From contig VBFY01000014.1 in NCBI GenBank assembly GCA_005889405.1, positions 2,542 to 66,541 of the forward strand: a stretch of 64,000 nucleotides of DNA, given 5' to 3'. A program made the translations under genes and the position numbers. Origin of the DNA: Chloroflexota bacterium. Its GTDB lineage: Bacteria; Chloroflexota; Limnocylindria; P2-11E. The notes under the pieces are model-generated. The model searched no databases. It was given only the letters and a program-made list of their open reading frames with translations, and was not told the origin of the DNA. Numbering within the stretch: position 1 is the first letter of the stretch; every line of letters begins with the position of its first letter. Positions 20,719-23,051 of the stretch are shown one piece after another.

Positions 20719-22116
20719 TTACCGGGCGGTGTGGATCGGTCTCCCCCGCGCGACGAGCGCGGCCTCGCGGAAGGTCTCGGCGAGGGTCGGGTGGGCGTGG
20801 ATCGTGGCGATCACGTCGTCGGTGGTCGCCTCGAGCCGCATCGCGAGCGTCGCCTCGGCGATCAGCTCGCTCGCCTGCGGCCCGACGATGTGCACGCCGA
20901 CGATCCGCTGGTCCTTCCCCGCCGCGACGATCTTCGTCACGCCTTCGCTCTCACCGAGAGCGCGCGCGCGACCGGACGCCTTGAATGAGAAGCGCGCGAC
21001 CTTTACGTCGTCGCCGTACTTCTCCTTCGCCTGCGCCTCGGTGAGCCCAACCTGAGCGATCTCGGGATGCGTGTAGACGACGTTCGGCACGGCGTCGTAG
21101 TCCATCGCGGCATCTTCGCCGAGGATCGTGTCGACCGCCACCTCGCCCTGCGTCGACGCGACATGCGCGAGCTTCGGAGCGCGCGGGTCCCCGATGCAGT
21201 CGCCGATCGCCCACACGCCCTTGACGCTGGTGCGCATGTGCTCGTCCACCGTGATGCCCAGCCGGTTGGTCGCGAAGCCCGCCTGCTCGACGCCCGAGTA
21301 GTTCGCGACGCGGCCGGCGCCCAGCAGGACCTCGTCGCCTGCGAACGTCTTCGACGACCCGCCGACATCGGCCGTCACCTTCACGCTGCCGTTGGAGCGC
21401 AAGACTTCGGTCACTTTCGCCTCGGTGACCACCGTGATGCCGCGAGACTGCAGCGCCCGCACGAGGAGGCGCACGAGCTCGGGGTCCGCGTAGGCGATCG
21501 GCTGCGCGAGCATCTCGACTACGGTGACCTCGGAGCCGAGCTCAGCGAAGAAGGTGCCGAGCTCGAGTCCGATCGCGCCGCCGCCGATGACGATGAGCCG
21601 CTTCGGCGGGGTCGTCAGCGAGAGCGCGGCGACGTTGTCGAGCGGCTTGGACTCGGCGAGGCCCTTGATCGGCGGTACGCCCACTTTCGATCCGGTTGCG
21701 ACGATGACATTCTTCGCATCGATCGCCTGCTCGCCGTTCGCCGTGCGTAGCTTGAGCTGCGTCGGCGACACGAGCGTGCCGTCGGCCTTGATCAGATCGA
21801 CCTTGCGCGCCTTGAGGAGCTGCTCGACGCCCGCGACGTTCTGCGCGACGACCGCGTCCTTGCGCGCCACGGCCTTCGCGAGATCGAAGCGCGCGCCCTG
21901 GACGATGATCCCGTGCTCTTCGCCATGCGTCGTGACCCAGTACGCGTGGCTCGAATCGAGGAGCGCCTTCGACGGGATGCAGCCCACCGTCACGCAGATG
22001 CCGCCGACGCGGTCGCGTTCGATGAGCGCGACTCGCGCCCCCTTGATGCCCGCGTGAAGCGCCGCGACGTAGCCACCGGGACCGCCGCCGAGGATGGCGA
22101 TGTCGTACGGCGTCAC
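20719..22116 (-). CDS. lpdA: Dihydrolipoyl dehydrogenase
   Basis: GGGPGGY, GGICVTVGCIPSK, GGGAIG, HAHPTLAE. Confidence 0.95.
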   Translation of the reverse strand: MTPYDIAILGGGPGGYVAALHAGIKGARVALIERDRVGGICVTVGCIPSKALLDSSHAYWVTTHGEEHGIIVQGARFDLAKAVARKDAVVAQNVAGVEQLLKARKVDLIKADGTLVSPTQLKLRTANGEQAIDAKNVIVATGSKVGVPPIKGLAESKPLDNVAALSLTTPPKRLIVIGGGAIGLELGTFFAELGSEVTVVEMLAQPIAYADPELVRLLVRALQSRGITVVTEAKVTEVLRSNGSVKVTADVGGSSKTFAGDEVLLGAGRVANYSGVEQAGFATNRLGITVDEHMRTSVKGVWAIGDCIGDPRAPKLAHVASTQGEVAVDTILGEDAAMDYDAVPNVVYTHPEIAQVGLTEAQAKEKYGDDVKVARFSFKASGRARALGESEGVTKIVAAGKDQRIVGVHIVGPQASELIAEATLAMRLEATTDDVIATIHAHPTLAETFREAALVARGRPIHTAR

Positions 22117-22471
22117 GTGAAAAGCGTAGCCACTTCAGATGCGTCGCGCTCCAATGGATGTGCCGCGTATCCATGTTTCGCGTACAGCCGCAGGTACAGC
22201 GGGAGGAAGGCGAGCCCGATGCGCTCGTATTGCCTCACATGTCGGAGCTCGTGTCGCCAGAGCGCGTCGGTCGGTTCGCGCGCGAAGATCACCACACGAC
22301 CGAACGTGATCGCGGAATAACCTCGACGCGTGAGCACGAGATGCGCCAGACCTCGGTCGCTCACGTAGAGAAAGCAGCCGTCGCGGAACCGCGGACGCGC
22401 GAACGACAGCCAGCCGAGAACGTGTCCGATCGGATCGGCGTGATGAGCGACTAGCTCGCGCGCCGGCTCAT
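22113..22471 (-). pseudogene. HExxH (DUF4157-like) small protein with apparent 2-nt frameshift near the start
   Basis: AITFGRVV...RHELRHVRQY. Frame extends upstream (ELVAHHADPIGH...) without a start; ATG 22471 is 2 nt out of frame across a (GC)n run. Confidence 0.55.
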
Positions 22472-22785
22472 TGCTCGATGCTATCGACGACCGCCTGAAC
22501 CGCCGCGGTCACCCGCGCTGCGTTCGTGACGCGCGGATCGAAGCGTAGCGTGAGCTTCCGGTCCAGCGCCACCATGCTCACGCTCACCACTCCCTCGATC
22601 TTCCTGCAATCCGTCACGACCTGTGACGCACAGGAGCTTCACATCAGGGCCGATATCTCGAGCGAGACCTCTTCGACATCCGCGGCGTCAGCCGTCGCAG
22701 GCGCGCGCTGCGCGCCGCCCGGGGTCAACACCGGCGAGCCGCATGCGACGACCGCCGCCAGCAAAAGGAAGGGCGCCAAACGCAC
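22468..22785 (-). CDS. Putative selenoprotein: lipoprotein with HMA (MerP/CopZ-like) domain, UxxC site, 105 aa
   Basis: MRLAPFLLLAAVVAC... then VSLEISALM-U-SSCASQVVTDCRKIEGVVSVSM...LTLRFDPRVT...IEQ*; TGA at 22641-22639 occupies the first Cys of the HMA CxxC. Confidence 0.85.
22603..22634 (-). promoter_or_regulatory. Bacterial SECIS element
   Basis: Upper stem CGUCAC-AGGUC-GUGACG with lower stem CCUGUG/UGCAGG; loop 16 nt after UGA. Confidence 0.8.
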
Positions 22786-22832
22786 CGTGTGATTGTGCGC
22801 TTGGCGCCCAAGGTCGCGGTGATCCTGAGGTA

Positions 22833-23051
22833 CTAGCGGTCGACGTCGTCGACCGGACGGTCCTCCTTGAGCTCGCCGATGCCCTGCTTCACCTTGCCCT
22901 TGGCTTGGTCGAGCTTGCCGCCGATCTCGGTCGAGCGATCGCCGCCGAGCTTGCCGGCCTCTTCCTTGACCTTGCCCTTGACCTCGTCGAGCTTGCCCTC
23001 CATCTCGAGCTCTTCGCCTGTCTTGTCCTTCATGTGTGTCTTGTCCTTCAT
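22833..23051 (-). CDS. csbD: CsbD family stress protein
   Basis: EGKLDEVKGKVKEEAGKLGGD...GKLDQAKGKVKQ; GGAGGG RBS. Confidence 0.88.
   Translation of the reverse strand: MKDKTHMKDKTGEELEMEGKLDEVKGKVKEEAGKLGGDRSTEIGGKLDQAKGKVKQGIGELKEDRPVDDVDR

Follow-up and report, generated by a model that had tools for sequence, protein, structure and literature searches.

Selenoproteins in which selenocysteine (Sec, U) occupies the metal site of a heavy-metal-associated (HMA) domain are already listed in published tables, as MerP-type proteins, a UxxU protein and a UxxC ATPase. The table of the Global Ocean Sampling (GOS) survey contains a selenoprotein "Mercuric transport protein MerP" and a UxxC cation ATPase (PMC2398784), a table of a 2022 review repeats the same ATPase together with a putative mercuric transport protein (PMC9312934), a table of a 2026 review gives NF041115 as a UxxU metal-binding protein (PMC13188914), and a preprint mentions other extracellular proteins with Sec at metal sites (10.1101/2022.07.06.499078). 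Here, we analyzed a 64,000-nt stretch of DNA (the window) from contig VBFY01000014.1 of a Chloroflexota bacterium (GCA_005889405.1), in which a preliminary description made from the letters alone had proposed a gene for a membrane-anchored HMA protein with Sec at its metal site, stating that HMA/MerP-like selenoproteins had been predicted computationally; the published tables show that this statement was right. The gene is a well-supported new member of the listed group, not a new kind of selenoprotein. Our literature search found no paper on this particular family among the titles listed; survey supplements may list members.

The locus is almost certainly a genuine, conserved selenoprotein gene that is currently mis-annotated, and we consider it likely that a single intact gene here encodes a small HMA selenoprotein that is exported and lipid-anchored and whose Sec49 and Cys52 bind a soft metal. 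The computed basis comprises the continuity of the frame, HMA homology, a Sec/Cys codon pair among orthologs, covariation in a Sec insertion sequence (SECIS) hairpin, the presence of Sec and lipoprotein machinery, and synteny. From it we infer that Sec is inserted and the protein lipidated, that it binds a metal and which one, and that it acts as a chaperone. Such a protein would extend the short list of selenoproteins that use Sec as a metal ligand rather than as a redox residue, and would be a useful case in being extracytoplasmic and coming from a little-studied soil lineage.

The best-matching selenoprotein model, NF041115 "UxxU_metal_bind" (E-value 2.3e-6), likewise describes an HMA-type domain that stands by itself and carries Sec in its metal loop, but the window protein reached only 27.7 bits against a cut-off of 95 and has one Sec (UxxC) where NF041115 has two (UxxU). 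MerP, both the GOS selenoprotein and the Cys-containing form (TIGR02052, 1osd, 1afi), resembles the window protein, which is predicted to be exported as well, in consisting of one HMA domain whose loop holds two ligands, the GOS selenoprotein doing so as far as its table entry goes. It differs in score (26.6 bits against a cut-off of 92.55), in the lack here of a MerT match or an above-cut-off MerA, and in the predicted lipid anchor and chromosomal housekeeping context here, in contrast to the soluble periplasmic MerP. The tabulated UxxC P-type ATPase contains the same domain with the same replacement of the first cysteine, but as the cytosolic N-terminus of a pump, whereas the protein described here is free-standing, apparently exported, and 105 residues long. 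The Cys-type domains of CopZ (1cpz, 2qif), B. subtilis CopA (1opz, 1p6t) and ATP7B show whole-domain homology, with U/C-x-x-C falling on MTCxxC. In contrast, these chaperones and ATPase domains are cytosolic, lack a signal peptide and have Cys where the window protein has Sec, and the residues preceding the site are G-M-T in them and [A/E]-L-[M/I/T] in our family. With the models of CopZ-type chaperones the window protein scored 18.6 and 17.9 bits, the cut-offs being 91 and 95, and it carries a predicted signal peptide.

The reading frame across the UGA codon and its orthologs

The minus strand from 22785 to 22468 contains a single 105-codon frame with GTG as its start (22785–22783) and TGA as its terminal stop (22470–22468), the sole interruption being a TGA at 22641–22639. 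Reading this TGA as U gives a 105-residue product with ...ISALM-U-SSC-ASQVV... in mid-protein. Thus, the frame, letters and coordinates given in the preliminary description were borne out, including the in-frame position of the TGA. Under table 11, two separate open reading frames (ORFs) are listed for the region, a 5′ one that stops at 22639 and one of 49 aa at 22468–22617. Similarly, the public protein collections hold 59 fragments of 35–53 residues, mostly called "hypothetical protein", and no full-length Sec form; their sole near-full-length match (P0002) is a Cys form with 75% identity to the window protein. Splitting of the gene by the public callers implies that Chloroflexota selenoproteome counts are too low.

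In the read-through protein, the Pfam HMA profile spanned the TGA (residues 42–97, E-value 2.3e-4, 21.9 bits), and the same profile was matched at E ≤ 0.01 by 20 of the 29 family members, with a best value of 3.4e-8. A profile made from 29 orthologs matched 43 solved chains in the PDB, all of which are metal-binding HMA domains or transporters containing such a domain, with 1opz (3.4e-10), MerP 1osd (1.2e-7) and CopZ 1cpz (3.9e-7) among the single-domain matches. U49 and C52 aligned to the two MTCxxC cysteines of the solved domains, the TGA falling on the first of them as had been proposed, and both metal-ligand columns were invariant in the 29-ortholog alignment. Comparison by hhalign with the HMA domain of the copper ATPase from the same genome returned a probability of 93.7%. 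The full-length alignment to solved domains suggests an HMA-type beta-alpha-beta-beta-alpha-beta fold, and the same homology points to a metal role for the protein.

Six-frame searches at E ≤ 1e-8 covered 61 relatives in a first round and, in a second, the 94 available genomes of one order of Candidatus Limnocylindria (Chloroflexota). Matches were obtained in 71 genomes, corresponding to 65 intact orthologs, 2 broken copies, 3 genomes with ATPase-sized frames only, and 1 genome in which the match was another small HMA protein. At the site, the 65 intact positional orthologs had TGA in 28 cases, TGC in 32 and TGT in 5, with no other codon, whereas the second ligand was Cys in 65/65. The TGA forms were spread over genera g1 (14), g3 (6), g6 (3), g2 (2), g7 (1) and, in a second family, g10 (2). 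Cys codons therefore align to the TGA in 37 of the 65 orthologs. A simple nonsense mutation among close relatives that all have TGC and no hairpin, which the preliminary description had named as its own refutation, is not what was found, the TGA forms all being accompanied by the hairpin. Among 401 sampled Chloroflexota genomes, nothing outside the order exceeded 50 bits and the matches there lay in ATPase-length frames, while the orthologs scored 80–145 bits. Unpublished genomes contribute to the counts: one Sec form comes from G022, Cys forms come from G071, G080 and G096, and G031 holds an excluded paralog; two further unpublished genomes entered only the selA search (G097) and the phylum search (G321). 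With the unpublished genomes left out, 27 Sec and 34 Cys forms were counted and the conclusions were unchanged.

Downstream of the UGA, the 56 codons of the 14 Sec forms in the window's genus showed nonsynonymous and synonymous divergence (dN and dS) of 0.13 and 0.46, respectively, a ratio of 0.29 (91 pairs). Variable sites numbered 23, 21 and 40 at the three codon positions, and both other frames contained stops in 14/14 sequences. Purifying selection thus acts on the codons downstream of the UGA. These data bear on the possibility that the TGA is a plain stop, the locus being either a pseudogene or a 48-residue lipopeptide followed by a 49-residue ORF, with an incidental hairpin. Public gene callers treat the TGA in this way, as the 59 fragments and the one near-full-length Cys form attest, but the HMA domain requires both halves, the TGA recurs in 28 genomes of 6 genera without ever being TAA or TAG, purifying selection is seen on both of its sides, and the hairpin covaries and occurs only with TGA. 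The comparative data already contradict this explanation, which we regard as very improbable.

On a tree of the neighboring dihydrolipoyl dehydrogenase (Lpd), at least 3 Sec/Cys changes were needed compared with a mean of 19.5 for shuffled labels, none of 500 shuffles being as low. This tree had 60 rows after removal of L024, L030, L049, L080 and L093, in which the Lpd piece was shorter than 250 residues or absent. When it was rooted on two rows of the second family, the outgroup rows were Sec forms; this root is insecure, and no direction of change is claimed. An origin of the Cys forms through loss of the Sec trait was considered and rejected, selA being present in 88 of the 94 genomes of the order and in 21/21 high-quality ones. 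With Sec and Cys orthologs that occur naturally in gene contexts identical in all other respects, the family is suited to a comparison of what Sec contributes at a metal site.

The hairpin downstream of the UGA and the Sec machinery

The preliminary description had quoted a hairpin, CCUGUG-CGUCAC-AGGUC-GUGACG-GAU-UGCAGG, and called it a textbook SECIS. This hairpin is present at 22635–22602 as the minimum-free-energy fold, with a 6-bp upper stem (22628–22623 with 22617–22612) closed by the 5-nt apical loop AGGUC (22622–22618), a lower stem (22635–22629 with 22608–22602), and a 3-nt bulge on the 3′ side (22611–22609). Bacterial SECIS loops lie approximately 16–37 nt from the UGA, and particular bases of the loop and bulge contact SelB. 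Like the E. coli fdhF SECIS, the hairpin directly follows the UGA within the coding sequence, and its apical AGGUC begins 16 nt after the UGA compared with 17 nt in fdhF. The stem sequences are unrelated to those of fdhF, and the combination of a 6-pair upper stem, 5-nt loop and 3-nt 3′ bulge distinguishes it. The "textbook" label therefore held for the AGGUC loop and its distance from the UGA, but not for recognition by Rfam, which returned no SECIS match at gathering thresholds.

Folding energy was not a useful criterion, and the test therefore had to be comparative; by the same shuffle measure that we applied to the window hairpin, the fdhF SECIS (K-12 record) gave a z-score of 0.10. The 6-bp stem and 5-nt loop were found in the same register in 28/28 TGA forms, fully paired in 27 and with 5/6 pairs in one, whereas none of the 37 Cys forms reached 6/6 pairs (counts 1 to 5). 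In the 28-row alignment, 99.4% of 162 cells were paired, and 3 of the 6 pairs were doubly changed, in 16 cells, the double changes in the upper stem being U-A to C-G, C-G to U-A and A-U to G-C. None of 500 shuffles of the 28 Sec forms reached the observed pairing, number of double-change cells or covariation score, and sliding the 3′ partners reduced pairing to 20–45%, except at −3 columns. In contrast, the same columns of the Cys forms were 38.7% paired, which 495 of 500 shuffles equaled or exceeded and which was no better than the slides. RNAalifold, given no preset structure, recovered the same stem. The apical loop conformed to RGGUN in 28/28 Sec forms (AGGUC in 13, AGGUG in 11, GGGUC in 2, AGGUU in 1 and AGGUA in 1). 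Several compensatory changes cost an amino-acid change, such as a synonymous change of a Ser codon paired with a Val to Ala substitution, which indicates from the alignment that selection acts on the RNA of the hairpin. Thus, the quoted hairpin is not only present but is conserved with covariation in the 28 TGA forms.

The genome of the window (3.05 Mb, 96% complete) contains all of the Sec machinery for which the preliminary description had asked. Adjacent selA (517 bits) and full-length selB (341 bits) both exceeded curated cut-offs, selD scored 333 bits, also above its cut-off, and had its own in-frame TGA in the context CAG-U-GAK (G000:C99:38989-39909, L010), and tRNA-Sec scored 74 bits, above cut-off, and was called by ARAGORN as tRNA-SeC with anticodon TCA. 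Another in-frame TGA, in ARV-U-HGP, was found in an FdhA-like molybdopterin oxidoreductase (G000:C18:7624-8418, L120). The Sec system is therefore present and appears to be in use. The terminal stop of the ortholog genes varied (TGA 48, TAG 12, TAA 4). It is extremely unlikely that the UGA is read through as something other than Sec, by a reassigned code or by near-cognate Trp or Cys. Such readthrough would yield the full-length protein too, and nothing specific speaks for it; most members of this very gene family end in TGA (48/64), so the code is not reassigned, and a complete Sec system coexists with TGA at the canonical Sec sites of selD and the FdhA-like gene.

A crude genome-wide scan for open frames with a TGA upstream of an RGGUN-looped stem of 6 bp or more, which is no survey of the selenoproteome, returned 9 candidates, of which only the HMA gene was protein-like; selD and the FdhA-like gene were missed by it. 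As a separate observation, the apex of the selD hairpin also reads CAGGUCCUG, farther from its UGA.

Several observations weigh against the selenoprotein reading or parts of it. With 21.9 bits, the window protein does not reach the Pfam gathering score for HMA (24.8), and none of the NCBIfam models came near its cut-off for this protein, the matches to MerTP (7e-8), NF041115 and MerP (6.5e-6) all being sub-threshold. The energy of the hairpin was unexceptional for DNA so rich in G+C, with a z-score of −0.84 and 38 of 200 shuffles as good over 71 nt, and a z-score of −1.65 and 18 of 200 over 47 nt. The slide of −3 columns left 86% of cells paired, though with no double change, and the lower stem was poorly conserved (72% paired in 17 sequences). 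Besides the silence of Rfam at gathering thresholds, a search at E ≤ 10 on 141 nt found only a chance match to a snoRNA. Damaged copies occur in two congeners, one (G004, L035) in which the Sec site reads CGA and the frame is lost after it, and another (G021, L039) that is truncated or rearranged; they may reflect decay or assembly errors in fragmented genomes. Ten of the 65 orthologs fail the strict lipobox rule described below. No metal-related gene adjoins the HMA gene, its neighbors CsbD, an HExxH mini-protein and Lpd being uninformative on metals. Finally, Sec is dispensable for function, because 37 of the 65 orthologs use Cys while the order keeps selA.

Predicted membrane anchoring and the candidate metal

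The N-terminus of the window protein (M-R, a hydrophobic run, then V-V-A-C) conforms to a PROSITE-type lipobox rule applied by script. The same was seen in 55 of the 65 orthologs, in agreement with the lipoprotein signal noted in the preliminary description. The failures comprised six near-lipoboxes, one sequence cut by a contig end, one that had lost the Cys, and two second-family sequences without a lipobox Cys. In the last two, the Sec orthologs L081 and L082 of g10, the N-terminus is longer and rich in Arg and a hydrophobic stretch comes after it, which points to another way of export or anchoring. The genome encodes lspA (97.9 bits against a cut-off of 73.95) and two tandem lgt-like genes (G000:C12:22157-23655), whose scores of 114 and 98 bits fall slightly short of the TIGR00544 cut-off (118.9). 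Judging from these features, the HMA protein is probably exported and lipid-anchored.

We propose the following pathway. The mRNA would be translated from the GTG at 22785, and SelB carrying Sec-tRNA(Sec) would bind the hairpin starting 10 nt after UGA49, so that Sec is inserted and termination avoided. Given the lipobox at the end of the N-terminal signal peptide, export, lipidation of Cys15 and cleavage by signal peptidase II would be expected to follow. A ferredoxin-like HMA domain would then be tethered by a flexible linker of ~23 residues to the outside of the cytoplasmic membrane, where Sec49 and Cys52 could bind a soft metal ion through selenolate and thiolate, in a loop equivalent to the two-cysteine loop of CopZ, MerP and P1B-ATPase domains.

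Alternatively, the protein could be a real exported selenoprotein in which U-x-x-C forms a selenenylsulfide/selenol-thiol redox couple, the protein then being an extracytoplasmic oxidoreductase or a peroxide/oxidant sensor and no metal carrier. Most of the bacterial UxxC selenoproteins listed in the review tables are redox proteins (PMC13188914, PMC9312934), and the gene adjoins no metal gene, its neighbors encoding the stress protein CsbD and the disulfide reductase Lpd. The homology, however, is to HMA domains and not to thioredoxin-like folds, as all 43 PDB matches attest, and Lpd is most likely a cytoplasmic E3 enzyme rather than a partner of an exported protein. A redox role therefore appears unlikely to us.

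The only other strong HMA domain in the genome belongs to a Cu P1B-1 ATPase (TIGR01511, 591 bits), which has a Cys-type HMA domain with no in-frame stop. It is the only Cu-type P1B ATPase of the genome and lies two genes from ctaD (709 bits; L107, G000:C93:15500-24500). No match to MerT was found in the 96%-complete genome, and no MerA scored above cut-off, the best candidate (350 against 454) being Lpd itself. Cu(I) is weakly favored as the metal, because neither a MerT match nor an above-cut-off MerA was found while one Cu P-type ATPase is present. Under this assignment, the protein could take Cu(I) from the single Cu-exporting P-type ATPase or buffer Cu(I) beside it. As a side observation, the gene between the Cu ATPase and ctaD weakly resembles the models for streptogramin B lyase and PQQ-dehydrogenase and probably encodes a beta-propeller protein.

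The affinity of selenolate for Hg(II) is very high, which would suit a protein that, like MerP, scavenges Hg(II) in a monoderm-type cell and passes the mercury on to a system for its uptake or reduction. Mercury models of NCBIfam were matched by most family members (MerTP by 28/29 and MerP by 24/29, compared with 23/29 for the UxxU selenoprotein and 15/29 for CopZ), but these mercury-type scores decide nothing, since all lie far below their cut-offs, as with the 26.6 bits of the window protein against 92.55 for MerP. The MerP selenoprotein in the table of the GOS survey also agrees with this reading (PMC2398784). Against it stand the lack of a MerT match and of an above-cut-off MerA, and the location of the gene in an order-wide housekeeping block rather than in a mobile mer operon, and we give mercury scavenging only a slim chance.

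A more specific version of the copper reading makes the protein the outward-facing member of an order-specific copper relay, in which its selenolate-thiolate site, held at the outer membrane face, would pick up Cu(I) that the Cu ATPase releases, for transfer to the aa3-type oxidase or for buffering. Sec might then have been chosen since a selenol would stay reactive where no thiol-reducing system operates. We consider this relay improbable; if it were true, the at least three Sec/Cys switches, which took place without loss of the Sec machinery, would record the local supply of selenium.

Features of the locus, neighboring genes and expression

Table 1 Features of the HMA selenoprotein locus, in window coordinates
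Feature	Position	Strand	Remarks
HMA selenoprotein coding sequence (predicted)	22468..22785	−	105 codons + TGA; UGA49 predicted to encode Sec; orthologs in 65 genomes
Predicted lipoprotein signal peptide, residues 1–15	22741..22785	−	MRLAPFLLLAAVVA then lipobox Cys15 (22743–22741)
Pro/Ala-rich linker, residues 16–38, between putative lipid anchor and domain	22672..22740	−	gapped, variable columns in 29-ortholog alignment
HMA domain, residues 39–105	22471..22671	−	Pfam match residues 42–97 (22662–22495)
UGA codon, U49, predicted first ligand of U-S-S-C metal loop	22639..22641	−	partner Cys52 at 22632–22630
SECIS hairpin	22602..22635	−	minimum-free-energy fold + comparative pairing
−10-like box CACAAT, tentative	22792..22797	−	6 nt upstream of GTG start
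CsbD-like small stress protein, upstream neighbor	22833..23051	−	Pfam CsbD 1.7e-14
83-aa HExxH protein (eCIS_core/DUF4157-like), downstream neighbor	22113..22364	−	eCIS_core 22.2 bits against cut-off 22
Dihydrolipoyl dehydrogenase (Lpd), last gene of conserved block	20719..22116	−	TIGR01350 480.7 bits against cut-off 408.8

The HMA gene lies in a block of the order CsbD, HMA, 83-aa HExxH gene and Lpd (Table 1), in which CsbD is retained at 61 of the 65 loci, the HExxH gene at 64 and Lpd at 62; the missing HExxH and Lpd cases, including the 3 loci without Lpd, correspond to contig ends. Because the gene order is kept, the Sec and Cys forms are positional orthologs. The absence of adjacent mer or cop genes, already remarked in the preliminary description, was confirmed by the identity of these neighbors. 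The stop codon of the 83-aa HExxH protein overlaps the lpd start by 4 nt, and this protein shows 57–96% identity across loci. Lpd is the sole dihydrolipoyl dehydrogenase above cut-off in the genome and is therefore most likely a cytoplasmic housekeeping E3. A functional link between the HMA protein and Lpd was considered and judged unlikely, Lpd being the only E3-type enzyme above cut-off.

A scan for consensus sigma-70 promoters returned nothing upstream of the HMA gene. Nearly all orthologs carry GCGCA[C/G]AAT 5–7 nt before the start codon, with a varying spacer (22792–22800 in the window; L021-L103), and this motif is tentatively read as the −10 box of a leaderless promoter.

In RNA library X15, from a relative ~96% identical to the window, contigs covered the whole stretch and one bridged the TGA with those bases unchanged. 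Such contigs show no starts, strand or level, and DNA may occur in such libraries; coming as assembled contigs from one run of a ~96% relative, they lend expression of the gene weak support, which also counts among the points against our reading. Runs X16, X17 and X18 gave no coverage of the HMA gene and are uninformative on its expression, while contigs from the soil metatranscriptome runs X16 and X17 matched csbD (22814–22996 in the window) with 100% identity.

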